DNA of 64,000 nucleotides from Lophium mytilinum (lineage: Eukaryota). Made by a program: the position numbers and the translations under genes. Below, piece by piece: positions 1 through 61,533 of this stretch. Under the pieces are notes generated by a model. The model saw only the letters and a list, made by a program, of their open reading frames with translations, searched no databases and was not told where the DNA came from. Every line of letters starts with the position of its first letter. Position 1 is the first letter of the stretch. Location: the NCBI GenBank assembly GCA_010093605.1, contig MU004181.1, forward strand, positions 3,472,001 through 3,536,000. Reading direction: 5' to 3'.

Positions 1-959
1 AGTAGTTACCTATATAAAAGGTAATATCTACTACGCATTTTAGTATAATAGAGGGCTTACTATTAGTAAGCTTAAAAATAATAGGTTATAAGAGGGGTTA
101 GGTAGATATTTTATAAAGGCGTGCAGTCTTTAAATAAAGAAACTAAAGCCTAATTCTATATTAGAAAGAATCTTAGTAGTAAATAAATTAGAATTAGATT
201 AGAGGATTCTACCTAAGAAGCTAAACTATTTGCTGTTAACTAGTTAAGGCGTAAGGATAGATATACGCATAATAACCGGCTTAGTTTCTTATTTTAAAAT
301 AGTAATCCTATCTATAACTACTCTTAATTTTTTATTATTAAAGGCTATTAGGGGTTCTTAGTAGTAACTATTACTAAAAACTAAGTATTTTCTATTATCT
401 TATTATAGGTAGAGCTAGTATTTATAGCGCTAATATTAATATTAATACTAGTAAGATTAATCTTATTTATAAGGCTACTAACCTTATAGATTAGAACTAG
501 CTATTAGCTAATATATAGGGCGTTACTATTAGCTATATATCTATACTTAAGATAGTTCTAGTAGTAACCTAGCTACTTAAGGCGGGTAATAGTGTAGTAA
601 TTATAACTAAAGGGGCCTAGAGAATTATTTATAGTAGTAGTAGTTAGAGTAGTATTACTAGTATTATTCTTAAATATACGCTTAGCATTAGTAAGTAGTA
701 GCCGGCGAGGCGCATTAAAGGCTAATCTAGTACCGGTGGCTTTATAGGTATTATATATAGACTTAGAGGCGTTCTTATTCTTATAGATATTCTTATTTAG
801 TTTAATAATATTAAGCTAGAATTCTAAAGTCTAGAGGAATATAATAAAAGTTATAATATTACTATTTTATCTATTAGTAGCCTTATACTTAAGGCTATTA
901 GTAAGATTTTACTATATATAGTAGATCTTTTTAGAGTTCTTAAGATAGAGGGAGGCTAC
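1..959 (-). mobile_element. Outer Gypsy-like element, downstream part (gag C-terminus, knuckle, protease); runs off the left window edge
   Basis: Minus-strand ggt tac tac tag aac tat ctt aag tat aga tat ... cta tat (569-~513) de-RIPs to a C-x2-C-x4-H-x7-C knuckle. A AAA AAT TAA lies at 333-324. att ctt tct aat ata gaa (171-154) de-RIPs to ILS-DTG in the -1 frame. Confidence 0.75.
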
Positions 960-1690
960 TATTATAAACCTAGAACGCGAGCTACTCTAGAATAAGTATT
1001 CTAGAAGGAGAACGGCTCTAGAATAGATATTCTAGAACTAATAGTGTGCTAGAATATAGGCTATTCTAGAATAAATATTCTAGAATAAGTATAGTCCTAG
1101 AATAGAGGTACTAGAACCTAAGGGAACCTAGTATAGTAAGATAGATATAGTTCTAGCTATATCTATATATAGAAGGGTATTTAAAGAATAGTAGAAAGGT
1201 AACTAGAAAAGGTAGTAGTTATAGAATATAAGGTTATATAACTAATCTCCCGGATCTTACTTAGTATAAACGCTAAGGGTAAAATTAAGAAGAGTAGAGG
1301 GTAATCTCTATAATCTTAGTAATCTTATATTAAGAATAGAGATTAAGAAGAGTAGAAAGAGCAGGACTAAATTATATAAAGGTTAAATAACTATAAAAGT
1401 CTAGAGAATTCCCTATTATCTTTTATTCTTTATACTTAACTTCTTATTATATCTAGTATATAGAACTTAATAGCAATTAATTATAACTTAAGTATCTTAA
1501 CTATCTTTATATACTTTTAATACTATTAAAGCTACCTTTCTTCTAATATTCTACTTATTTATACTTAAACCTTATATTATATATTAGCCTATAACGCAGT
1601 TAACTAGTAGATAAGTAGAAACCTAACTATCTAGACTCTTTCCCTAAAGTTTCTTAGTATAATCTTTAGGTAAATAAGTAGTTTATAATA
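960..1690 (+). repeat. 5' LTR (731 bp)
   Basis: Direct repeat of 7905-8635. Termini TATTAT...ATAATA fit RIP-mutated TG...CA ends. Confidence 0.95.
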
Positions 1691-1745
1691 CTTTAAGTAC
1701 CTATAAGTATTAGATACCTATATAATAAGTTAAACTATTCTAGTA

Positions 1746-3764
1746 ATATCTATAACTTTAGAAATAACTAGTTAGCCTACTATAGTATAGCGTATAGCTA
1801 AGTAGAATAGATAGCTTGCGGAGCTATATACTATAATATTATAGCTTTAGATAAAGGTAGAGTAGTAGGCTTAGGTCTAGTTAACTAAGGTACCTTTACT
1901 AAGAAAGTATAATAGTACCTAAGGAAAGCTTAATAGCTTTCTTATAGAAATATAACTTTACCTTTACTATAACTAGGCTATATACCCTAAGAAACCTAAT
2001 AAGGTTCTAGCAGTAGGTATATACCTAGAGGGTGATGCCCTTATATAGTTCTACCTAATAATAGAAAATTTTCTTAATAATTCTATAGATAAATAAGATA
2101 ATAATACTAGAAGAGTCTTTAGAAACTATACTATCTTTAAGAAATATATTAGGGACGTTTATAGAGACTTTAATATAACCTAAACTACTATATATAAACT
2201 CTAGTATCTTAAATAGACTAGAATAGTAGCGGAATATATAGCTAAGTTTTAATAGTATTTAGCGCAACTTAACTAGAATAAGAGCCCCCTAGTTAAATAG
2301 TATTACGCGGGTTTTATAGATAAGATTAAGAATAAGTTTATAAGTATTAACTAACTAACTAAACTTAGTAAGATAGTTAAACTCTATAACTAGATTAATA
2401 ACCGCTATATTAAGAGAATATTAGAAAAGAAAAGCTAGTAGAAACTAGTAGTAACTATAGAAAAGAGATAGAAGTACCCTTAGAATAATTACTACGGGAA
2501 CCTAATAGATTTAGACTATATTAGTAAATAGGCCCTAAGAAAGAAATAGATAAGAAAGAAGAACTCTAAGCCTAACTTTTAGAGGCTAAATAAGGACTAG
2601 CTTAAGAAATAGTATAATAATAATGCGTGCCTATAGTACGGTAAGACCGGCTACTACTAATAAGACTATCTAGCGGGAGAGTTTAAGGGTAGTCTAGAAA
2701 TAAGCACTAATACTAGGGTTACTATAATCTAGAACTAGCTACTAGAGAATATAGAAATTCTACTTAACTAAGTATAGATTAATACTTATATCTAGCGCAA
2801 GGTATACTAGATCTATAGAATACTAACCTACTAAAAACTAGAGTATAAGATAGAATATTAGAAGATCTATATAGACTATAATAGATATAATAAAGAGAAA
2901 CTATTTCTTAAGGGAATTAGGGCCTAGTATACGGACACCTATACTAAGGCATAAAGAATGCATGCAGAGTACTACGCTAGATAAAAGCTTAAAAAAGGAG
3001 AATAGATATATAATATATAAGAGAAACGGGCAGCTTATTATAAGAATAGATAATAGTATAATGTGCTACTATAGATAATATATAAACTAGAGGGATATAA
3101 TATCTATAGTTTATAATAAATAGACGCTAATAGGTAAAGAGTAGTAAAGAAACTAATACCTTATAGAAATATAAGTTTTATAGCGTACTATAATAATAAC
3201 TATTAAATATATTGCTAGGCTAAGAAAGAAAGTAATTACTTTCTTTAGAAGGTAGAATTATAGAAGATAAGGGCGGATACTTTAAGACCCCCTACTAAGG
3301 ATAAACCTATAATGCTAAAATAACCTACTAGTATCTTTATAGATAAAGAGTTAGCTAAAGTAATAAAGAACCTTAATATAGATAAAGATTTTATTATAAT
3401 TAATAATAAAGCCCTAGAAGACTAGGGCTTAAAAGAGTTAGATAATCCTAACGCCTAGAAAAATATTAGCGCTAGAAACTAGCTTAACTAGATAGAAGAG
3501 ACTACGGCGGAACTAATAGACGCCCCTATAGATAAGAAGTCTAGTAATAAGAATAACTATAGAAGTAATAAATACTAAGCACTCTATTAGATATAGTATA
3601 AGAATAGATATAGGCACTACTAAGAAGAAAAGAGAGTAATAGAATAAAATACTAAGAACTAGTACTATCTACTCTTATACTTAGTAGAATACTTTAAGGG
3701 TGCTAAATACTATATCTATAGTATAGACCTATAGCCTAGGGTTCTAATAGATCTAAAAAACTAG
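1746..3764 (+). pseudogene. gag of the inner Gypsy element (RIP-degraded, long C-terminal extension)
   Basis: The knuckle tgc cta tag tac ggt aag acc ggc tac tac taa taa gac tat reads C-x2-C-x4-H-x4-C after de-RIP. The same frame ends at AAA AAC TAG (3756-3764). The start codon (ATA, from ATG) is inferred. Confidence 0.75.
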
Positions 3765-6700
3765 TAGGCTACTAGACTAAGGGATTACTAGAAAATATAG
3801 TAATAATATCCCTAAGAAATATATATAGTATATAGCCCCGGTTATACTTATATATTAACTTTAAAATTAATAGGGGACTTAAAGGGAAAGTATTAGTAGA
3901 TAGTAGAGTATTCTAGAGCTTTATATTACTAAGATAGATAGAAAATAAAGGCCTTCCCTACTAAAAGAAATAGAAACCTAAGAAAGTCTAACTAGCGGAT
4001 AACTAACTACTAGAGTATAGAGGAGAAGTAATTAACCTTAAAATCTAACCTATAATATTATTAGTAGCTAGCTATATAGAGATGCTATATATAAATATTA
4101 TAGATATTAGAGGGCTAGATATAATCCTAGAATAGAATTAGCTCTACCGAAATAACCTAGTAATTAACTAGAAGAAGAGAGAAATAAAACCGGCAGCCTA
4201 GGTGGCTAGGATTAGATAATTAGTTTAGTAATAACTAGAAAACTAGAAGAAAGAACTCTTTATAGAATAAATCTCTTTATATAAAATTAAGAGGATCTAT
4301 AATAAATAACTAGCGGATATAGAAATTATCTAGCTATAATAAATAGCTACTATTAAAGAAATAGTTATAAAAACACTATAAAAGAACTACTTAGAGTTTA
4401 AGGAACTCTTTAAGAAGAATATTAAGAACGCGCTACCTTAGAACTAACTATAGGACTATATAATACTACTTAAGAAAGAAGTAAAGCTAACCCCGGGACC
4501 TATCTATTTATTATCTTAAGATTAGTATAAGGCGCTGCAAGAATATATTAAGATAAACCTAGCTAAGGGCTATATTAAGAAAAGTAAGAGCCTAATAGCC
4601 TTACTAATTCTCTTTATACCTAAGAAGAATAGAAAACTATAACTATATATAGACTATTAAAGACTAAATAATATAATAATTAAGAATTACTACCTATTAC
4701 TACTTATCTAGGAGTTATAAGACTACTTATAAGAAGCTAAGTAGTTTACTAAGTTTAATATCTAAGAGGGATATTACTATGTTAGAATAATGCCCGGCGA
4801 AGAGTAGAAGATAGCCTTTAGAATAAGGTTTAGACTCTATAAGTATAGAGTAATGCCTTTTAGCTTAACTAACGCCCTAGTAATATTCTAAGCGCTTATT
4901 AACTATGCGCTATAATAATATCTTAATATGTTTATAACTGCATATCTAGATAATATATTAGTATATACTAATAGAACCTTAGAAGAATATAAGGAATATA
5001 TATAAAAAGTACTTATAAAGCTATAAGAATTTAAACTTCTAGTATATCTAGATAAAAGTAAGTTTTATGTTATAATAATAGACTTCCTTAGCTTTATTAT
5101 CTCCTGCAACGGGATTAAGATAGACTCTAAGAAGACTGCAGCGGTCTTAGAATAGCTAACGCTATAAAACATAAAGAATATATAGTTATTTCTTAGTTTT
5201 ATAAACTTCTATAGAAAGTTTATTTAAGAATATTTAAAAACTACTGTACCTCTTATAGAGATAACTAAGAAAGATAAAGAATTTTAATAGATAGTAGAAA
5301 CATAGACCGTATTTAATAAACTTAAGAAGAAGTTTACTACTACCCTAATTCTAATAATATTTAACCCGGAACTAGAAATAATAGTTAAGGTAGACGCCTT
5401 AGACTATGCTATAGGCGCTTACTTAAGTTAAAAGTATCTAGATAGGAAACGCCAACTAGTAGTATTCTATTTAAGAAAACTTACTCTAGAAGAACTTAAC
5501 TATAATATCTATAATAAGGAGTTATTAGTAATTATAGTAGTATTTAAGTAATAGAGACCCTACCTTAAAGAACTAAAATACTAGGTAATAGTCTACTCTA
5601 ACTATAAGAACCTTACGGCCTTTACTACTATAAAGCAGTTAAATAGATAATAAGTAAGATAGGTAGAGATGCTAGCCTTATTTAACTTTAAAATCTATTA
5701 CTAGAAAGAATTAGAGAATAGAGCTATAAACGCGCTTAGCCGCTAATTAAACTATATACTTAGTACTAAACTAGTATATAATATAGTACTTGCAAGGGCT
5801 ATAGATAGCACCTTATAATATAATAATCTAAAACTAGCAGTAATACTTAAGATAAGTAACGCTTAGATAGATAAATTCTAGAAAGAAGATAAATATATAG
5901 AGGCCTTCTAATATAACGCTTCTATAATCTTAGATAAAGACGGCAACTAGATATACTTAATAAAAAGAATGTTATAGGTACTAGAAGCGTGCTATAAGAA
6001 ACTTACTAAGAAATACTATAGCGCGCTAATATATAGACACTAAGAATAAGAAAAAACCTTAGAGAGACTCTTAAGGAACTACTAGTTTCCCTAGATAAGG
6101 GTAATAGTAAAAGAAGTAATTAAGAACTATAAAGACTGCAGGAAAAATAGAATAGTAAAATATGTACTCTATAGATTACTTTAGATTCTAAGGGTTCCTA
6201 AATAACTATAGGATTTAGTAATAATAGACTTTATTATAAAGTTACTCCTATTAGTAGAACTAGGGACTAATATAAGCTATAACTTAATCTTAGTACTTAT
6301 TAATTAACTTACTAAATTCTTATACTTTATACTAGTATAAGAAATATATAGTATAGCTAAGCTAGCTTATATAGTACTATAAATCCTACTAAGCAGCTAC
6401 TAGCTACCTAAGGAATTTATTACTAATAGAGATAAACTCTTTATTTTATACTTCTAGAAGACCCTTATAGTAAGGTTAGAAGTAAACTATAAGCTCTTAA
6501 TAAGTTTCTACCTATAGATAGATAGATAGATGGAATAAATAAACTAGACTCTTAAATAGTACCTATAAAACTATATTAACTATTAGTAGAATAACTAGGT
6601 AGAACTACTACCTATAGTATAGTTTACCTATAATAGCGCTAAATTAGCTATAACTAGCAAGTCCCTATTCTATATAAACTACAGCTATAAGCTAGAGGTA

Positions 6701-7306
6701 TATTAAAAAGCTAGGAAAGATATAATAAACGCGTAAATAGTAATAGAAAAGGCGGCGTTACTAAGAAACTTATATATATACCTTAACTAAAGTATTTAAG
6801 CTAGAAATAAGATAACTTAGGCATATATAGATAAGAAGTAGTTAAATAGACTAACCTTTAAGAAGGGGGATAAGGTTTACCTATACTAAAAAAACCTTAA
6901 GACTAGAAGACCTAGTAAAAAACTTAATTATATTTAAATAGAACTATTTAAAATTAATAAAGTTATTAGTTCTATAAACTATAAACTAAAACTACTAAAG
7001 AATATAAAAATCTATCTAGTATTCTACGTGTTACTACTTAAACTAGTACTAGTAAATGCTAAACTCTAAACTACTATATAACTTAAGAAGGAGGATAAAT
7101 ATAAGATTAAAGAAATCTTAGAACTATAGAAGATTAATAATTAGTAGAAGTACTTAGTTAAGTAGAAAGAATAGAAAATAGACTAGAATACCTAGAAACC
7201 TATTAAAAACCTAAGAAACTACTAATAATTAGTAAACTAGTTTTACTAAAGAGATCTAGTAGCGCTGGATTCTAGGTAGAGGGAGACTCTAGGATAGCCT
7301 AATTAA
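3761..7306 (+). pseudogene. pol (PR-RT-RH-IN-chromodomain) of the inner Gypsy element, RIP-degraded
   Basis: The PR, RT, RH, IN and chromodomain motifs all fall in one frame, which is -1 relative to gag. Many RIP-derived TAA/TAG stops. End approximate. Confidence 0.85.
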
Positions 7307-7784
7307 TATTTACTAGTAGGTTAAAGAACCCGGGTAATAGCTATCTAGAGAATTAGGCGGCGGCTAACTTCTCTACCTCTTCTAAATTCTCTAACTTCTT
7401 AATAGAAGTAAGCTTCCGCTTAAATATCTTTTTATAGTAATACTTAAGAAGCTAGAGTTACTTCTAAATATAAATCTTACGCGTAAGTACTACTTACTCT
7501 ACCTCTTTATAAGTAAGTATAGCCGCCTCCGCAGTAACTAGCTAAGCCTAGAGCTTAGCCTCTACTTTCTTAACTTAAGTCTAGTATTTCTTAGTTACTA
7601 CTAGATTATAGAACTTTAGGTTGTAATTAAGGTACTTAGAGTACTAACTAGATATAGTATCTACTAGATAGCGCTAATAGAAGCGCTAATAGTTTCTATA
7701 GGGGGTTAGCATATTATAATTATAATTATAAATCTTAGAGGCTAGACGTTTATAATAGATAGTTAAGGTTTTAACCTTAGGCAT
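7203..7784 (-). pseudogene. Antisense accessory ORF of the Gypsy element: Zn2Cys6-like Cys cluster plus coiled coil (RIP-degraded)
   Basis: Intact ATG at 7784 (MPKVKT...). Six TAT/TAC codons are spaced x2-x6-x8-x2-x7 (7700-7608), followed by an Ala/Glu/Lys/Leu-rich helix. 3' end uncertain. Confidence 0.7.
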
Positions 7785-7904
7785 AGTAAGGAGAAGAAAG
7801 AGTAGAGAATACTACCTTAAGAGTATAGAGGTATCCCCGGCCTTATATAGAACTAAGATAGTATAAATTAACTTTTAGGCTAAAAGCCTTATAGAGGGAG
7901 TAAG

Positions 7905-8635
7905 TATTATAAATCTAGAATATAAGCTACTCTAGAATAAGTGTTCTAGAAGAAGGACGGCCCTAGAATAGATATTTTAGGACTAATAGTATACTAGAAT
8001 ATAGGCTATTCTAGGATAAACGTCCTAGAATAAGTATAGTTCTAGAATAGAGATACTAGAACCTAAGAGAACCTAGTATAGTAAGATAGATGCAGTTCTA
8101 GCTATATCTATATATAGAAGGGTATTTAAAGAATAGTAGAAAAGTAACTAGAAAAGGTAGTAGTTATAGAATATAAGGTTATATAACTAATCTTCTAGAT
8201 CTTACTTAGTATAAACGCTAAGGGTAAGATTAAAAAGAGTAGAGAGTAATTTCTATAATTTTAGTAATCTTATATTAAGAATAGAGATTAAGAAGAGTAG
8301 AGAGAGTAGAACTAAATTATATAAAAGTTAAATAACTATAAGAGTCTAGAGAATTCTCTATTATCTTTTATTTTTTATACTTAACTTCTTATTATATCTA
8401 GTATATAGAACTTAATAGTAATTAATTATAACTTAAGTATCTTAACTATCTTTATATACTTCTAATACTATTAAAGCTACCTTTCTTCTAATATTCTACT
8501 TATTTATACTTAAACCTTATATTACGTATTAGCCCGTAATATAGTTAACTAGTAGGTAAGTAGAAACCTAACTATCTAGACTCTCCCCCTAAAGTCTCTT
8601 AGTATAATCTTTAGGTAAATAGGTAGTTTATAATA
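7905..8635 (+). repeat. 3' LTR (731 bp)
   Basis: Direct repeat of 960-1690 at offset 6945, preceded by a polypurine tract and followed by the TSD GCTAC. Confidence 0.95.
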
Positions 8636-10671
8636 GCTACGCTAGTATTAAAGCGGCCTACCTAAGTTATAATATACTTATCTTTCTTTTATATAAATTT
8701 ACTATTATATAGGTTAGTATATATATTAGCTACTTTATTAAAGGGTCTATAAATCTTATCTAGGTTATTAATTAACTTCTCTATAGAGAGGTATAGCTTA
8801 TTACTATTAGATTTAGCGCGGTAGAAGATTATATTAAATACTTTACTCTTAAGCTAGTTATAAATATATACTATATAATAATATATAGTAGTATATAATA
8901 GTATATAAATATTAAGCTTACTAAGTATCTATATATACTACTATTAGTAGAATAGCTTATTCTTATTACTACTACTAAACTTATCTAGATTAGGGTAGTA
9001 ATATATTATAGTGTATACGCTAGAGTCCTAAATAGGTATAAATAGAGTAGTAGACTTACTCTTAATAGGTTTAAACTATAGAGGCTAGCTAATAGAATAA
9101 TAGTAAAGTAGTACTATAGATATAGAAGAATAAGTACTATTATTATTATTTAAATTATAGTCTAGGTCTAAGAGCTATAGATAAGTCTATTAATAAAGCT
9201 ATTAGTTAAGCTTCTTAATATAAGTAGTAAGCTTCTTATATATCTTCTTAAGATTCTAGTACTTACTATACTAGTAATTATAGTATAGGCGTATCTAGTT
9301 AAGTTTAAGGTTAGCCTAGTAACTACTTATAGCTTACTATAGTTATTTAGTATAATAGGCCTCTAACTCTTATTCTACTATAGCAGTATTATTAGCTATA
9401 TTCTATTTATATTTCTAGTACTTATTCTAGAGGTTATTATAGTACTTATCTTTATTATTAGCTTCTTTAAAGCTAACTTTATATTCTATATAAAGCTTTT
9501 AGAAGAACTTCTACTATATAAGCTTATTCTTATTTACTATAGTAGTAAACTTAGTCTTATTAGTAACTATAAGGTTAATAGTTATAGTACTATTAATATA
9601 ATAGTTAAGAAGCTAGATTAGTAGCTAAATATAGCTCTAGAGGTTACTTTCTTATAGGTTCTCTAGAATATCTATATACTTAGGTTTAGTATTTATAGCC
9701 TATTTAGTTTTATAGTATATAACTAGAATAGACGCTTATTAATCTACTATAGAGACGCGGTAATAAGTAGGGTATAGCTTACTACCTTTAGCTTATATAT
9801 TATTTATATTATTCTTAGTAATAAACTATATAGCGCGCTTATCTAAAATATTTACGCTAGGCGTAATAAAGCTGCCTTTATTATTAGAGTTATAGTCTAG
9901 ATTAAGTTTATTAGTAATAGTCTAGTTCTAGTTAGAGAGTCTAGTAGTATTAACTTACTTATCCGCTAGGCGTTTAAAGCGCTAGGTATTAGCGCGCTAG
10001 GTATTATCTATTACCTATAAAGTAGCTAGTAGAGTTATAGAGTTCTAGGTCTATTTTTAGGTATTTAGAATTAGTTCTCTAGTTTTATAGTAGAAGCTAG
10101 AAATAATAGCTAGAGTAGAAAAGCCTTTAGCTACACCTTAAAAGCGCGTAAGGCGCGTAGTATAGTAGGCTTCTTTATTACTAGTAGTTAGTAGAGTTAT
10201 AGAAGTATATTTTAAAGTATTTAAATTAGCGCTATTTATAGCGCCTAGAGTCTTTAAATCTTCTTAAAGTTTAGCTATTAAATTAATTAGCTTATTTAAA
10301 GAAGGCGGTACTAGATTATAGTCTACTAGATTAGATTTAGGTGCCGCACGTAGCTATATAGCTAGGCTGGTAGAAGAGTATTTAATTAGTTTTAGTAAAA
10401 ACGCCTAGATCTTATAATAGAGTTCTAGAAAAAATTAATAAAATTTTAAGTATAGAAGAGAGAGCTTAGATTATATAGGGGGCTAATATAATATAAGTAA
10501 TAAGGTATATTAACTATTATAAAAATCTAAGCTAAGAAGAAAAGAGAGAGCTAGAAGCTTTTAAGAGGTTGTAGTTTAATACTAGCGTATAGGCTATAGC
10601 CTAGCGCTAGGCTAGCATTTTACTTAGGTTATATAAGGGGCGGTATATAACCTTAGTATATAATTATTATA
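8636..10671 (-). mobile_element. Outer Gypsy-like element, upstream part (gag N-terminal region and possible LTR)
   Basis: RIP-mutated sequence. The minus-strand frame continues across the TSD (GRFNTSVA|SLYL) and contains a P(D)(P)DKF gag-like motif near 8975-8997. A candidate LTR at 10413-10671 (TATAATA...TATTATA) is tentative because its partner would lie outside the window. Confidence 0.6.
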
Positions 10672-12518
10672 ATTCTAGATTTATACTATAATAAAAAATA
10701 TAGATAGATAGATTCTTAGTATAGCTATAGTAAAAGTTAGTCTATAGCTCTTTTAACTAGATAAGGTCTATAAAGCCTTTAAATCTACTTCTCTATAGCT
10801 TTCTATAGTATAGTAGCTTAGCTATATTCTCTATAGCTTAATATATATATCTATTACTATTTTAGGTAATTTAGTACTTATTAAGCGCCTCTAGAAGAGC
10901 CTTAAAGGTAGCTATCTATTAAAAATAAACCTATTAAGCCTAGTTTAATTTATAAGCTTATATAGAGGCCTAAAAGCTATTATAATAATAATAGTAGTAT
11001 ATAGTATATAAAGTATATAAGAAATTATACCTTAATACTATAGCTAAGGCCTATATAGAGTTATATAGTAGCTAAAAATACCTCTATAATATAAAATAAT
11101 AGAGCTAATACTTAAATGGGCCTAGGAACTAGTTACCAGGCCTTAATTGGCATAGGCGTGTTAATCTGGCGTCCCGGAGGCGTTTGTAGGCATTGTAAAA
11201 CGTTTGCCGCCAAGATACAGGCAATCCAAACTGTAGCCCCCCTGCGTCAAGCTTATCTGTACGCACCTCACCCTCTCTGACGACGACCTGAGCCCTGCCC
11301 GCCTAATCTTCGATACTCATGCTCTCGAAGCACCACTCAGCTCTGTGAAACGTTGCACAGCATCCAGACGACCGATCGCTTTACCTACATAGTCGACTTG
11401 CAGATTTTGCGACATATCTCTCTTGCCCCCCCTTCTGTTCATGTCATGTAATGCAATGCGAAGCGCGCAAATCGGAACGTGCACCGTCAATGCACGATGC
11501 GCCGAAAGTGGCGGGCGCTCCTGCGGTGGGGGATCTTAATATAGGCGTGATAGTGGTGATCATCGCGCCATGTGCGATGGGAAAGGTGGAGCCTTACATA
11601 CCTTCGTGGCTGTCTGGGCAAGGCGCAGCGCAGCCAGCACGCACGCATGCACCCACTGTAAGCCTGTGGTGGAGCGGAGCGTGCGGAGCTGGGGTCTGAG
11701 ATAAGAGATAGCTCATCCAAGGTGAGTGCGATGCTGATGATCGTTTGCACGATATGGAGGGGTGAGGCGACGCTGTATGCTATGGCTGCTTTTCATGTGA
11801 TGGTCAGATTTCGTTGTGGTTTGCGGTTCTGTGATGGATTGAATAGAGACGCAATGATAATGACGGTGAGACTCGCAAATAAACCTAATTCTATATTGAA
11901 CTAGATAGTGTAGCCGTGATCGATCATCGCCTGTCCAGCTCGACGCCAACGCAGGCGGAGCGCTCGGTAAGCCAGCTACGGAACGGAGTGATCGAATTCA
12001 ACGGATGAAACAGCGAAAAGGGAGCCAAGGAGATTTGAGATGCAAAGCACCAGCAAAGATTGGTCGACGCCATCACGTCTAGCACTTGGGTATCCTAGCA
12101 ACAAAAAGGAAACAAAGTGATTGAAATGACTCCTCCCCAAATGACCATCCAGTGCTGTAGTCCCGCTACTATCGAGTTCGTGCTAAGTCGTGAGGAGATG
12201 GGGAAGATGACAATATAGAGACCACCGCCGCCAGTTATGCAATTTTGCCTTTCTGGAAGGCCCTCGGCAAGCGAGGTGAAGGGGAACAAACTTGTTGAGA
12301 TAAGTAGATGCCACTTTTGGATGACGCTCTCGGGAGCAAAGGTCGTGATGTGATATATGACGCCGATAATGCCGTGAACTGAGATAAAGAAACTTCGTTT
12401 CGGTGTGCCCCCATGGTCAATTTCATTTCGATGACTTCAAAGGTTGCCGGACGACAGACGAGGTAGCAGATGGACGTTGGAGTGCTGGTCGTTGTCCGGT
12501 ATGGGGTCCGTCGGCTAG

Positions 12519-13094
12519 TCATCTCCCGCCTACTGACGTCGGGCGTGATGGTGATATATCGCCTCGACGCTGGGCTTCTTCGCGGATGAGCTTGTCGACG
12601 TGAGCGGCAGCATCATCAGTGTGGACGCCTGCCATCAGGTAGCCGTCATGGCCTTCGAGCTCCAGAGGCGTAACCGGTCCAGGGCTGCCCAAGGGGAGGA
12701 GGCGGGGGCTGATCGGCTTGGGACCCGGAGCCGTTCGAGAGCCTCGTGAAGCAGTGGCGAGGAGCTCCCGCTGGTACAAGTAGAGCTGTCTCTGTGCATC
12801 CGAGTACTGCTTCTGCTGGGCACGCGGTGAGGGAGGCGGCTGAGGGCTGTTACCACCGCCTACCTCGGGCGTGTTGGCTAAGCTGGAGTGCTGCGAAGGG
12901 AAGTTGGCCGGGTGGAAACGTGGCAACGACGGCAGCCTCAGCGACGACGAGCCGCTGCTCGTCTGTCTGGCGTGCGGCGGCGGTTGACGGCGAGCTTGCG
13001 AGGGGATGGCGAGAGATTCCATCCTGGGGGAGAGTGGTGACGAGCCTGGTGGTGGCGGCATTTGCAAGCTGCGTGCGGCGAGTCTAGAGGGCAT
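12519..13094 (-). CDS. Conserved fungal Pro/Ser-rich hypothetical protein
   Basis: Single ORF with the motifs LRLPSLPRFHPANF and SPRLLPLGSPGPVTPLELE, which I recognise from uncharacterised Pezizomycotina proteins. ATG at 13094 follows a TATATA element; the upstream part of the tracked ORF is probably UTR. Confidence 0.7.
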   Translation of the reverse strand: MPSRLAARSLQMPPPPGSSPLSPRMESLAIPSQARRQPPPHARQTSSGSSSLRLPSLPRFHPANFPSQHSSLANTPEVGGGNSPQPPPSPRAQQKQYSDAQRQLYLYQRELLATASRGSRTAPGPKPISPRLLPLGSPGPVTPLELEGHDGYLMAGVHTDDAAAHVDKLIREEAQRRGDISPSRPTSVGGR

Positions 13095-15412
13095 TGACGA
13101 CGCTGAGCGGTGGGCGCGGGGCAGCCTATATAGATGACGTGCGTCCCGTGAGTGTTGTGAGTGCGAAGAAGGAGGTTCCCTAGTTGAAGGCAATGATTCG
13201 AAACAATACTTGATGCTGTGGCCGCGTTGGGGAGAGGCAGCTGCAAGGCGGGAGGAATCCGGAAGGGGCCCAGTATATCTCGCAGCGGGACGGCTTGAGA
13301 TAAGTCGGCGCGCTGGAATTGCGGGGATGCAGTAGAGGAGGGCGCTGCTGGAAATTTGGGTGCCGATCAACCGCGATAAACACTCGCTGTGCCTTGTATG
13401 GCTCCCAAGCGCCGGCAGGGCCCCTGACAAGCCTCTGTGCCGGGTTTGAGAGGGAGGCGACCGATTTGCTGCAGTATCCTGTACAGTAGACCCTGAGAAT
13501 GGTGCAACGTGGCGCGGGAAGCGTGGGGAAAAAGAGGAAGATCAGACGTGGTGGTGTGCAGAAGATGAGTGAAGGAGAATTGCCGGTGGCCTGTGGTGCG
13601 TTGGGGAGCAGCGGCGCGAGGCCGTAGTTAACCTTGGAAATGTGCAATTAGGGCCCGGCAGGTAACTCGCAGGTTATTTCCAGACGGCACCGCAGCACAG
13701 GGAGTCAAACGCGGCGGTCGTTATGGGTACTCTTACTCGGAGGGCGCAGTGGGAGTGGTCGAGGGACACGGGGGGGCTACGGGAGTGGGTACGAAGGGCG
13801 CCTTCAGACGGCGGGCGTGGCTGCATTTTGAACAACGGGAGGGACGGCTCCAGAACGGCGGCGCGTCCAGCATCGTCGTCGACTCTTCGCGCTCGCTCTC
13901 GTGGGTTACGTGGGCCGAGCGTACAGTAGTGACGACAAAGCCAGGGCAGTCTGCGGCCGTGTCCATCCCGAACGAACCGAGCAGCATCGTTCCGTTGTCG
14001 GTGCGCACCTGGGCACGTGCAGCACAGAGAGCTAAGCCCTGCATCACCACCAACCTTGGAACCTTTTCGAAATGGCGACCCGCTGCTGTTGCCATCGCGA
14101 TAGGCCACACGAACAATCCCCTGTTGGCCATGATGTCTGCTGCACCTCATCTCGGTGCCGGCCTAATTCGCCGCCTGTGCCATGTCATGAGACGCCTCTC
14201 CGCTATGCTACATCCATCCGGGGGCCTTCTGGAATTACCAATTCGCCTATCAACCCTGTCTCGCCGGAATTGACAGAATGGCGTCTTTCTTGAGGCAATC
14301 CAGATGAGTGGTCCACCAGCCGCTGCACCATTGAACTGCATGAATGCAGCCGTGGCTTGCACAACTCAGACTCCAGCGCCGCATAGACGGCTGGGCATAG
14401 GCGGCTAGACTTCCATCTCCTTTTGTAACATCATGCCATTCAATTCGAGCTCCGTGATGCGATTACCATAAAACTTCACCTTTCCGGCCATCTACAGCAG
14501 TGAGTAGCACAAAGGACCGCGCCGTTCGCCATGTCCTTTATTAAGCAATCGCTGCATTTGACGTGCCACACAAACGCTCAAACACTCAATGCCAACAACT
14601 CGTGCCGGAGGCGATACTGCACCTTTGAGGCCACTGCTTCGACGCGGGGTTTGTGTATGCAGCTGCTGCCGGTGAAAGACCATACAAGCGATTTCCAGGC
14701 CCGGAACGATCATCACTGCATTTGCTTCTGGGCATCAGGCGATGTGAGCACGGTCAGCCCTGCCTTTGTTATACAGCTTCAAAATGGCGAGATCGGGGTG
14801 TCGTTCCTTTGAACCCCCCGTTTGTGCTACATAGATAAGATGGCTTACTGTATTGGACCATGCCGATCATGACAGCCCTGCATCATGCAACTCCGCTTGT
14901 GTCAATTAAACATGGGAAGAAACAGCCCTTCGCGGTGTCTACCTTTGGCGATTAGGGCTAGCAAAGAGCAACACAAGTCAGTTTCCGCATATTTGATGCT
15001 GGGAATGCCGCGATAACCGTGCCTCGCTATAGGTAGCCACGACCTCTTTTACCCCTCCTAGTAGTGCTTCCAAGGGTCCCTAAATTTTTAGAGCCTATAT
15101 CTGGTTTGTACACTTCCGTCTGAAGCAACCCAATAAGTGTATGAATGGTTCAGAACGGTAGACTTTCTTCTTCCTCATATTTTAGAGACACGTCTCAATA
15201 CTCACATGAGGTGCCAAGACGTTGTACATAGGTTTTCGGGAACGCAGTAGAAAAGACGGTGAGCGAATTCACAAGATGCCTGAAGGAGCCATCGCCGGAC
15301 GGATGGTTGCGTTGAGGTTGTGTAAGTTTCTATTGTTTGACTTATGCACAGTGCCGTCGGGACCCTGCATGAGAGAACGCCGCACTTTTCTCCACCACCA
15401 CTCCATGCTCGT

Positions 15413-59004: not shown

Positions 59005-60969
59005 TCAATTCAGGGAATCAAGCCAAAACTCCGCATTCGACCACGTATCCAGGTAGGTATAGTCTCCTTCTAGAGACAACTGCTGGCCCATTGCGGGCAT
59101 ATCTGCCGAGATGGCTGTCCCAAGCGATTGCTGCGGCTGCTGATCCTGCATTGCCGACTTATCAATAGAAGTCCGAAACGACGCTTTGATAGTCTCCCAC
59201 TGGTCTAGCAGCCTCGCAAAATAGTGAGGTTCTCCCTGCGGCGTGTTCGTCCACTGCAGAATTGCTCGAGTACGAGAGCAGAGCTGATCTAACGAGCTCT
59301 CGTACTTGATCATTCGGGACACAGAGTCTTCGGTGAAGGTGTTCGAATAGAGAACGTGCGTGATGCGGCTCCCGAGCTTGACGATGTAGTCCAGCTGCCT
59401 CCACTTCAGCGCAGTCCATAGACTCATGTCACTGGTAGTGAGGGACATGATAGTAGTCATATATCTGCGCACGGCGGTTAAGCAGTCAAAGAGGATGGCG
59501 ACTCGAGTCATTGAGATAGGTTGACCTTGTAGGCTCCCGTAGAGCCCGACTTCGTGAGTGTAGGCATCTATGAGGTTGTGCCAGACGCCTAGTTCATCTG
59601 TTTTCTAGTCAGCTCTATAAAGTTCGTTTTCTTGAGGTTGAGATGTTGCTAACAATGATCCTTTAGTTCGGGGGGTAATTTAGACTTCCAGCCCTTAAGT
59701 TGCCGCTCGATAGCATCAACCAGGAGCTTTATCTTCTCGTCGTTCGTCGTATCTCCGGTACCCCAGTCCCCATGGTGGAGATTGTCATACACTTGCTCGT
59801 TGATATGCATTAGCCGAACGAAGTGGACCAGAACCTTATCAGAGGGATACGTTGATTCTTCCGCCAGTGAGACGGCGCATTGCTCTAACCACTCGGTATA
59901 TTGTAAGGGATTTGCTTTGCGAAAAAGGACAGCAGATCTGCAAGGGTTAGCCAGTTCTCGTACGTAGAAAATCCCTAGCTTAGTTACATACAGAGTGCAA
60001 GCAAGGTATGTTCCGATGAGTGCGCGTTGTGCCTCGCGCTTCCAGAACTCCGACAACCCGCCAGATATCGACGATTGGGTCACACCAACGATAGCATCAT
60101 GTTGACTCGAGCATTGAGGCTTTTTATGCAAACCGAGCTCAATCACAAGGTTTGCTGCCAATGACGCTAGCCTGAAACCCTGCTGGGAGGGCTGAGGTGT
60201 GAAGAAATGGTACCTTTGTTCATTCAGATGATGTCGATTGCAGTGTTTGGGCAAGCTTACCAGCTCAGGTACACCAAAAGACCTTGAATAAGGTCCATGG
60301 ACTTTTCGCCCTTAACAAAGAACCGCTCACCCATGTCCTTCAGAAATTCCTGTTCCAGCCTAGTTTGGTCCGTCCGGTGCCTCCAGCGCGTCACAACAAT
60401 AATGGCCAGCAGAAGGAACGGCCTCTCTTGACGAAAGCTTCGAACATCTACCGGATCTGCAATCTGTACACATGCAAAGCTTCCTCCTATAGAGCGGTAG
60501 TAGGCTAACGACTCGAGGAGCAGTTCCTGGGAAACGGAATGGATGGATTCACGTGACGTGTCATCGGAAGTTTCCGACGACTGTGATGCCGCAACAGAGA
60601 GACGTGCCGACGAGATTGGAGTCGGGTGCGATATGCCTGGAGTGTCCTGAGCAGCAACTCCTGGTGTTGCTGTTGCGAGAATTCCCATGATGCTGGTTAG
60701 GCTCTGCTCGAGCTGATCCATCCTATTGCGTATGTGCCGGGTTTGGCGCTTGGGACGGCGGGACTCTGGTATAAAACATTCGGTATTGTATTGATAGCAT
60801 CTAGCTCCCCGGTCAGTGGCCTAGTAGGCGAAAATCGATCAGTTCGTCCGCACCTTTGGCAAACATTGCTGCCCTCTCTCGGCAGACAGCGGATCTTCTT
60901 GGACTTGCATTCTGCGCATGCTTGGCCCCGACGTTCTCTAGTACGGGTTACGCTTCGCTCTTCCGACAT
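59005..60969 (-). CDS. Zn(II)2Cys6 fungal transcription factor
   Basis: Spliced ACAECKSKKIRCLPREGSNVCQR/CYQYNTEC; middle-homology region with ERPFLLLAI, KSMDLIQGLLVYLSW, LVIELGLHK. Confidence 0.9.
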
Positions 60970-61533
60970 GTTGGCTGCAGAGCATGTTCGAGTTGGTAAT
61001 GTGTATGGTTTAAACATGCCGTGGAATATCGCATCATTTCTTGGGACCCGGAAGACGGCCAAAAACCGGCGCCGGAAAGGCAGATCTAGCCGTCGACGCC
61101 ACCTTGACGATATAGAGGCTAGGGGCTGACCATTCACAGTGCAACACTGTTGGCTTCGCGCACGTGACGGGCGTATTTCAGGTTCCGATTTCCGAGATTT
61201 TCATAAAGCTTCATGCAACACTTGCTTAAAAATGAATAAACGCGGGGTCACACCCGCTCATTGGGGTTATGTCTGGCTGTGTGGCTGTGGCTAAGGTAGC
61301 CAGGTCGCTGGATCTGTCAATGATAGCTACCGTGGATATGGGCTCGCTCATAAAGCCTTCTTGTCTCCGCGGTTCGTTTCTTCGCGTCTGACCACCTTCA
61401 ACTTGTCCCAGGTCGTTTCGTGGCCAATCTGTCTCCTCTTCTCCTGCTTCGAGGTCTGGGGTCCCAATACTGTTTCCTATAGATACAACCCTTCATTTTC
61501 TCTTTAATACGTGTGATTCCCCGATCGACCCAC

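Follow-up and report, generated by a model that had tools for sequence, protein, structure and literature searches.

A probable RIP-killed remnant of an antisense accessory gene in a Ty3/Gypsy chromovirus of Lophium mytilinum

Near the start of a 64,000-nucleotide stretch of Lophium mytilinum DNA (GenBank assembly GCA_010093605.1, contig MU004181.1, positions 3,472,001 to 3,536,000 of the forward strand; called the window below) lies a Ty3/Gypsy chromovirus degraded by repeat-induced point mutation (RIP). An initial annotation, made from the letters of the window alone, had proposed that this element once carried a third gene, of about 190 amino acids (aa), on the strand opposite to pol, and that this gene encoded a Zn2Cys6-like cluster followed by a coiled coil. 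Here we focus on that antisense open reading frame (aORF). Positions 7203-7784 of the minus strand are likely the RIP-killed remnant of an accessory gene that belongs to one clade of ascomycete Ty3/Gypsy chromoviruses. The gene family to which it points is real, widespread, under selection and essentially unannotated, and it is only because of these relatives that the observation in the window is significant.

The antisense frame in the window

The frame begins at a minus-strand ATG (7784-7782), and when the DNA was re-translated, this start codon and the translation quoted in the initial annotation were both recovered exactly. Over its 194 codons there are 16 stops, all of them TAA or TAG and none TGA, and 11 of the 16 are internal, ahead of the stop at codon 144. 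Six tyrosine codons are found at 7700-7698 (TAT), 7691-7689 (TAT), 7670-7668 (TAT), 7643-7641 (TAC), 7634-7632 (TAC) and 7610-7608 (TAT), which correspond to residues 29, 32, 39, 48, 51 and 59 and have the x2-x6-x8-x2-x7 spacing that had been claimed for them. Each of the six can be derived by RIP from a TGY cysteine codon, and the minus-strand stretch that they span (7608-7700) is taken here as the former six-cysteine cluster; it also holds two extra tyrosines (residues 36 and 54) and three stops (33, 37 and 47). Upstream of the start, the TATATAA (7849-7843) and CCGG (7840-7837) motifs named in the initial annotation are present. Just two ATG triplets are left on the minus strand of 7203-7900, one of them the conserved aORF start; on the plus strand an ATG reads CAT and contains CpA, the target of RIP.

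In a family-profile hmmsearch over the six frames of the 64 kb, the best match is the aORF locus, which is colinear with the profile and has an E-value of 0.13. Since ordinary BLAST and hmmsearch scores fail on this frame, a RIP-aware scoring was used, in which each window codon counts as the best residue that it could have encoded before RIP, with the rule that a T may derive from C before A and an A from G after T. The local alignment scored in this way reaches 249 against the intact relative P0025, 311 against L050 and 295 against L025. By comparison, 200 shuffles of P0025 give 124.8 +/- 11.4 with a maximum of 163, and 108 other 195-codon blocks of RIPed DNA, taken in six frames, give 133.7 +/- 23.9 with a maximum of 191; 24 further frame-blocks do not exceed 171 against L050 or 165 against L025. 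The window and its relatives align colinearly from the start codon through the C-terminus. The alignment to L050 has 182 pairs, of which 37 are identical and 78 identical or reachable by RIP reversal, and the first four residues, M-P-K-V, are the same in both. The six cysteine columns of the relatives fall on the six window tyrosine codons, six out of six, in a gap-free register. This register is anchored by a conserved Met, placed four residues ahead of Cys1, and by the V-T-x3-(W/F) that follows Cys6; the conserved Trp beyond the cluster lies opposite a TAG in the window. Further along, the former coiled-coil region (7350-7595, minus strand) aligns with a long helix in the model of P0025 (residues 86-172, pLDDT >90). 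On this reading RIP changed all six TGY cysteine codons of the window copy to TAY, and its Trp, Gln and Arg codons to TAA or TAG. The window copy is dead and no protein can be made from it.

Some results obtained on the window itself are neutral or count against this reading. The tyrosine pattern is by itself not beyond chance: two instances of the Gal4 spacing in tyrosines are found in the six frames of 1-11000, and 300 dinucleotide-preserving shuffles contain a mean of 0.33 such patterns, with at least one in 28% and at least two in 4% of them. A tblastn search with the RIPed translation against L001, the closest related locus, is not significant. The family to which the window element belongs is represented in one sample by some 233-248 contigs (runs X1 and X2), which differ almost entirely by transitions, and among the 40 listed of the 270 differences between these contigs none falls in 7608-7700. 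One contig per run X1 and X2 has a variant form, in which 7426-7687 (260 bases, inside the aORF remnant) is swapped for 239 other letters. Stop density is no discriminator, with 7.7% in the aORF frame (7356-7784), 9.2% in the true pol frame and 9.1% in one antisense frame of pol. TATATAA, counted on either strand, occurs 48 times in 1-11000 versus 8 times in the remaining 53 kb, and a Pfam scan of the minus frames in the window gave no match.

The intact gene family

The window pol homologues, once aligned, led to 20 Gypsy loci from IMG/VR. The closest of these, L001, is 7.4 kb long, and its long terminal repeat (LTR) stretches show no difference in the 300 nt compared. Between its pol stop (6057) and its 3' LTR there are minus-strand ORFs, and two frames read together give M-P-K-L-K..., a cysteine cluster and then a coiled coil. 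The aORF of L001 lacks one nucleotide between Cys2 and Cys3 when compared with P0025 (6440-6470, minus strand), and the pol of L001 is also split, into ORFs 2555-5464 and 5560-6057. The aORF is absent from all of the 20 IMG/VR loci but L001. Intact homologues were found in P0025 (235 aa) and P0026 (217 aa), at 36% identity (E 9e-28), and both have the spacing C-x2-C-x6-C-x8-C-x2-C-x7-C, which is exactly that of the window tyrosines.

An exhaustive HMMER search extended the family to 77 protein clusters (at 50% identity) with E-values of at most 1e-3, of which 19 reach 1e-10 or better. The full six-cysteine pattern is present in 50 of the 79 sequences examined, the other 29 being left unclassified. 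All six cysteines are invariant in an alignment of 44 sequences, an invariance that is partly by construction because the sequences were chosen for the pattern. A single metagenome scan gave 43 loci, which together with L001 make 44. The cluster is found in 38 of these loci, and 31 have an intact ORF from Met to stop that includes it; one locus, L022, has a further cysteine inside the last gap. Among the relatives the spacing is C-x2-C-x6-C-x8-C-x2-C-x6/7/8-C. Intact ORFs run from 152 to 290 codons, the majority of them 173-207 aa, in line with the size first proposed, and the protein, which often starts with M-P-K, mostly has 173-235 aa. No poly(A) end or poly(T) start was found among 44 loci (L021-L064), so nothing marks the short contigs as transcripts.

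As judged from substitutions between the relatives, the aORF frame is under codon-level purifying selection. The median ratio of nonsynonymous to synonymous substitution (dN/dS) in this frame is 0.12 (Nei-Gojobori, 31 pairs), and it is 0.09 in the first 60% of the columns, upstream of the overlap with pol (39 pairs). The five other frames have values of 0.24-2.2, so that the aORF frame is the lowest by a factor of 2-3. What tells against a full reliance on these figures is that the aORF frame was the one used to build the alignment and that the pairs, sharing ancestry, are not independent. The initial annotation had staked its case on relatives spared by RIP, which were to show an open antisense frame with cysteine at the six positions and conservation at the codon level on that strand; this is what the relatives have.

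Names are almost absent from the family. Of 30 clusters looked up, one is a named NCBI/UniRef record, a hypothetical protein of Sclerotinia nivalis, and one more is an unnamed NCBI record. A profile search of a word-indexed protein set returned just unnamed or 'hypothetical' metagenome proteins, and in the ESM Atlas there are 'hypothetical protein' clusters alone, from Ascomycota. The Sclerotinia nivalis protein (P0095), the sole named member found among the 30 clusters, is distant (E 3.5e-4), and it may be a mutated copy, since its second cluster cysteine is replaced by tyrosine. Three longer family matches of 324-400 aa (P0056, P0139 and P0140) lie on contigs of 25-84 kb, and in P0056 the cysteine cluster is near residue 195. 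Pfam searches of these three proteins gave no match; they may be fused or host-resident forms.

Position in the element and distribution

The place of the gene is fixed. In all 27 intact loci with a chromodomain match, pol is on the opposite strand and converges tail-to-tail with the aORF, which bears out the claim of an ancestral third gene lying antisense between the chromodomain and the polypurine tract. The predicted overlap of its 3' end with the tail of pol was also recovered, with a median of 50 nt over a range of -102 to +200 in these 27 loci. Read from the LTR side, the aORF ATG follows directly after the purine tract. Its distance to the LTR boundary is 120 nt in the window, about 95 nt in L001 and between 84 and 113 nt in L033 and L034, so that homologues sit consistently antisense just upstream of the 3' LTR, the arrangement that the initial annotation had proposed to look for. 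The window has the same layout, an antisense ORF between pol and the 3' LTR: the chromodomain, at the end of pol, is at about 7091-7252 on the plus strand (placed by motif search; homologues carry PF00385), the polypurine tract is at 7893-7904, directly before the 3' LTR, and the spacing from the one to the other is about 640 nt. This tract was read from the sequence, and relatives have the same arrangement of a GGGG-rich tract and then TGTTAC....

In a quick tree of the integrase and chromodomain region, 25 aORF-bearing elements and the window form part of a single clade of 41 rows with an SH-aLRT support of 100; the other clade contains 9 elements shown to have no aORF. The aORF labels require 2 changes on this tree versus a mean of 9.1 when shuffled. 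Of 11 loci examined from the other clade, 3 have no chromodomain match and 8 have no shared antisense ORF downstream of the chromodomain. In this quickly made tree the window stands on a long branch (1.44), and no starred set holds it.

One element has lost pol and kept the aORF. At L049:6578-8991 (the same element as L048:4673-7086) a long contig carries a 2.4 kb LTR element without pol, in which two 330-bp LTRs of 95% identity enclose gag (minus strand, 7798-8586) and an intact 175-aa aORF (6992-7519) only. It looks like a non-autonomous derivative that has retained the accessory gene. As for expression, there is little room between the ATG and the LTR. The aORF transcript would therefore probably begin within or beside the U3 end of the 3' LTR and run in the antisense direction, and its promoter would lie in the short spacer or in U3 read backwards.

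Nature of the encoded protein

From its N-terminus onward, the protein consists of a short basic helix, the six-cysteine cluster, a helix of about 85 residues and an acidic/aromatic C-terminal motif, which is conserved as L-S-P-x-T-W ... D-D-F-W. The AlphaFold2 model of P0025 has a pLDDT of 82.9 as a whole, and that of the 80-residue domain 86.2. In the model a helix comes first, then a compact cluster in which each C-x2-C leads into a short helix, and then one helix over residues 86-172, in agreement with the coiled coil that had been foreseen after the cluster.

Much in this arrangement is shared with the Gal4-type Zn2Cys6 domains (PF00172, Zn_clus). The cysteine spacing is within the Gal4 consensus, C-x2-C-x6-C-x5-12-C-x2-C-x6-8-C, in every full member. 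A short helix after each C-x2-C and basic residues between Cys2 and Cys3 are found in both, and the order of cluster, short linker and coiled coil is the layout of Gal4, Put3 and Hap1. The top Foldseek matches are almost all Zn2Cys6 DNA-binding domains (Leu3, Hap1, Put3, Pho7, Gal4, LAC9 and Ppr1). LAC9 is also the best match of the domain profile in the PDB (E 0.04), with the six cysteines aligned, and its structure (1cld) superposes with a root-mean-square deviation of 2.1-2.2 Å over 33 columns. The cluster would, on our reading, bind zinc in a Gal4-like binuclear fold.

However, the gene may be real and its six-cysteine module not of the Gal4 type. The module could be another zinc or disulphide knot that binds RNA or protein, for example in a chaperone or assembly factor of the particle or in a factor that counters host silencing, and we regard this as possible, although rather less than probable. 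It would account for several results that count against the Gal4 assignment. None of 44 full-length members matches Zn_clus at E <= 0.01; the best full-length scores are 15.0, 12.1 and 8.8 bits versus a gathering cut-off of 21, and every Zn_clus score is below that cut-off. When the domains are searched alone, 15 of 27 match Zn_clus at E <= 10, the best at 0.001, whereas 24 of the 27 touch DUF5651 (PF18892), none with a significant score. This Pfam family of unknown function matches at a best E of 5.6e-5 over a stretch with the first three cysteines; the whole-protein scores seen are all below its 27-bit cut-off, the highest being 23.1 (P0099). All Foldseek E-values are at least 0.5, and VIA-align gives Z-scores of at most 2.8, with Hap1 and Ppr1 among unrelated helical rows. 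An hhalign comparison of the family with a Zn-cluster-like host ORF in the window itself (60697-61017, minus strand) gives a probability of 25.5%, obtained with a template that is truncated and sub-threshold. The start of that host ORF resembles a Zn cluster, with five cysteines and a Zn_clus score of 14.8 bits versus 21, and it seems to be interrupted ahead of the sixth by a probable intron. Lastly, the aORF protein has features of its own: a helix ahead of the cluster and a Cys3-Cys4 gap fixed at 8, with an invariant V-H-x-x-S-G in it. To our knowledge, Gal4-type domains have neither this motif nor such a helix. The aORF protein further differs from them in being small, without a large regulatory domain, and in coming from a retrotransposon gene instead of a host gene. 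Of the initial proposal of a Zn2Cys6-like protein, then, the spacing has stood, while the score by which PF00172 members are gathered was never reached. The six-cysteine module would work like a Gal4-type cluster and may descend from one; it is not filed here as a member of PF00172.

The long coiled coil is predicted to pair as an antiparallel homodimer. The two-copy model, which was built without an alignment and with zinc included, has an interface score (ipSAE) of 0.42, versus 0.00 for the best control. The mark used for this score is reached by 21 of 30 solved one-chain pairs and 0 of 23 solved single chains, and among eukaryotes by 17 of 29 pairs and 0 of 30 single chains. At least 87% of contacts are common to the runs, the pLDDT of the partner is at least 77, and the contacts 124-124, 113-134 and 148-99 give the antiparallel pairing. 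The coiled coils of Gal4-type proteins are parallel. In this respect the predicted dimer is unlike theirs and speaks for a module of another kind, and the passing score may reflect a generic likeness to coiled coils.

It is plausible, if somewhat short of probable, that the protein is a dimeric factor that binds nucleic acid, most likely DNA, and works on behalf of the element, for instance through control of LTR transcription or of chromatin. A more specific version would make it the element's own Gal4-like zinc-cluster protein, found throughout the clade, which is expressed from a promoter that lies at the inner edge of the 3' LTR and reads antisense, binds DNA as a dimer and acts on the LTRs or chromatin of the element so as to set transcription, silencing or copy number. 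It would then be important enough to keep, together with gag, even in pol-less derivatives. In this complete form the proposal is tentative and, on balance, unlikely.

Alternative origins of the frame

A different question is whether the gene does anything for the element at all. Gene capture by LTR elements is known, and the cluster resembles host Zn2Cys6 domains, so it might be a fragment of a host Zn-cluster factor that the ancestor of the clade captured once and that has travelled along as a passenger with no role. This is improbable. A passenger would not be expected with a dN/dS of 0.09-0.12 across diverged elements, an ORF intact in 31 of 44 loci at a position fixed in 27 of 27, a spread across the whole clade and retention in a derivative left with gag and the aORF only.

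The coding strand could also be that of pol, with a long C-terminal extension of pol whose antisense frame is open as a by-product. Gene models from NCBI and JGI for elements of Bipolaris and Alternaria do run about 250 aa beyond the chromodomain on the pol strand, and one pol-strand frame has the second-lowest dN/dS, 0.24-0.28. In the aORF-bearing loci, though, the end of pol lies between -102 and +200 nt from the end of the aORF, the dN/dS of the aORF frame is the lowest by a factor of 2-3, and the second-lowest frame would presumably be the antisense one that shares wobble positions with the aORF. The six invariant cysteines and the conserved motifs are legible in the antisense frame only. 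Past the chromodomain, the tails of the gene models match none of the loci apart from a low-complexity stretch in L062, which is also the single match when the Bipolaris and Alternaria tails are considered as a reverse reading of the aORF. An extension of pol is therefore very improbable. The long-tailed models (P0002-P0013) belong to relatives of the window pol from Bipolaris, Alternaria and metagenomes, and they have two alternative C-terminal endings that look like the same DNA in two frames. Their long tails suggest read-through past pol into spacer and LTR sequence, and an antisense gene could in this way escape annotation.

That the window frame was never a gene, its tyrosine codons and its K/E-rich text having come about by chance in AT-rich RIPed DNA, could appeal to the frequency of the pattern in shuffles and to the poor plain hmmsearch and BLAST results, but it is already contradicted, and close to negligible, given RIP-aware scores far above both nulls, cysteine columns that correspond six for six in a register fixed by the flanks, a position, orientation, length and LTR distance as in the 27 testable intact loci, and a window pol that falls in the aORF-bearing clade.

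Comparison with known antisense genes

An antisense ORF between pol and the 3' LTR is already known as a kind of gene. In the work of Zhao and colleagues (Virology, 2011), brtn was reportedly described as an antisense gene of Boty-like Gypsy retrotransposons in Botrytis cinerea and Sclerotinia sclerotiorum. It is classed with the ORFs that lie between pol and the 3' LTR and is antisense to gag-pol (PMC7264820), and its function is given as unknown in the relevant passages of four papers (PMC7264820, PMC8365987, PMC4227169, PMC5987419). According to a passage in one of these, a Monilinia transcript matches a truncated Pol with chromodomain and BRTN (PMC5987419), from which it follows that brtn adjoins the end of pol. 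Like the aORF, brtn is thus an extra antisense gene of a fungal chromodomain Gypsy element at a similar position; the two are compared here by position and description rather than by sequence alignment. The passages on brtn in the same four papers make no mention of cysteines, zinc or a coiled coil (PMC7264820, PMC8365987, PMC4227169, PMC5987419). The hosts of the aORF appear to be other ascomycetes than those of brtn, with Bipolaris and Alternaria as the nearest named relatives by pol. Nevertheless, the occurrence of the distant member P0095 in Sclerotinia nivalis makes a link between brtn and the aORF plausible.

In plants, the antisense aORF-3R is found between pol and the 3' LTR of Grande1, RIRE2, Retand and PvRetro13, where it is described as conserved among copies and of unknown function (PMC7264820). 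Its place and orientation are those of the fungal aORF, by description only. Retand is assigned to a non-chromovirus lineage in the passage that treats it (PMC11963269), and its internal region is long, whereas the space between pol and LTR in the fungal elements is about 0.6 kb and almost filled by the aORF. The statement of the initial annotation that Gypsy elements encode only gag and pol, and sometimes env, was thus too strict, as antisense ORFs are on record in plants and in Boty (PMC7264820).

A family of cysteine-cluster/coiled-coil proteins of this kind was not found described in the literature searched. Searches (supplements excluded) for Zn2Cys6 proteins or antisense ORFs in fungal retrotransposons returned brtn and the plant aORFs only and nothing on a cysteine-cluster/coiled-coil protein, and DUF5651 gave nothing by name. 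In two surveys of fungal transposable elements, a term search found neither 'antisense' nor wording for extra ORFs in the text covered (PMC3248453, PMC4112212).

The window element

The element lies within a RIP block that covers positions 1-11000 of the window, with a GC content of 0.24-0.31, a TpA/ApT ratio of 1.66-2.22 and a (CpA+TpG)/(ApC+GpT) ratio of 0.02-0.20. In the adjoining DNA (11001-14000) these two ratios are 0.67-0.89 and 1.14-1.29. It is placed on the plus strand, where an LTR pair flanks a trace of gag and a pol, all degraded by RIP, and it is identified as a Ty3/Gypsy chromovirus by its two LTRs, its gag and a pol with the order reverse transcriptase, RNase H, integrase and chromodomain, as seen from Pfam and homologues. 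The 5' LTR (960-1690) was found as a direct repeat with 7905-8204, at 91% identity over 300 nt, and by alignment, its ends being read from the sequence; the 3' LTR (7905-8635) was placed by the direct repeat and alignment as well. From protease to chromodomain, pol occupies 3800-7252 (positions mod 3 = 2) with no frameshift and with many RIP-type stops. Pfam matches in it are RT_RNaseH_2 (2e-17), RT_RNaseH (4.2e-16), Integrase_H2C2 (1e-4) and SH3_Tf2-1 (7e-7, 29.7 bits versus a cut-off of 30), and there is a gag match also. The window pol has 22 homologues at E <= 0.001, the best at 7e-75, and these carry PF00078 and PF00385; the closest 13 are at 33-37% identity, and the nearest named relatives are from Bipolaris maydis and Alternaria panax.

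A purine tract (ATAGAGGGAGG) also sits upstream of the 5' LTR, at 925-959 of the window. Among loose contig ends there are many genomic copies with ...TTAAGATAGAGGGAG ahead of the LTR start, and the DNA after 8636 has that tract before it in other copies. The tract before the 5' LTR and the loose contig ends suggest that the element may be part of an array or a nest of related elements. A second copy of the spacer was sought in the window and not found, nor was a second aORF remnant in 260-955 or 8640-11000.

Implications

The gene was inferred from DNA that RIP had scrambled completely, by reversing the rule of mutation, and intact relatives then proved it to be real. They reveal a family of at least 77 clusters (50% identity) of small cysteine-cluster/coiled-coil proteins encoded antisense in fungal Gypsy elements. 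For annotation, the space between pol and the 3' LTR in the aORF-bearing elements is coding, on the opposite strand; the gene would go unseen in reference annotations, where repeats are masked or pol models read through it. The family may also give brtn of Botrytis Boty, which has no function assigned, a family and a testable domain. If it is true that the protein binds DNA, it would be a transcription-factor-like regulator borne by a retrotransposon, and such a regulator would bear on the control of LTRs and the evasion of silencing in fungi whose genomes have compartments built from these elements.

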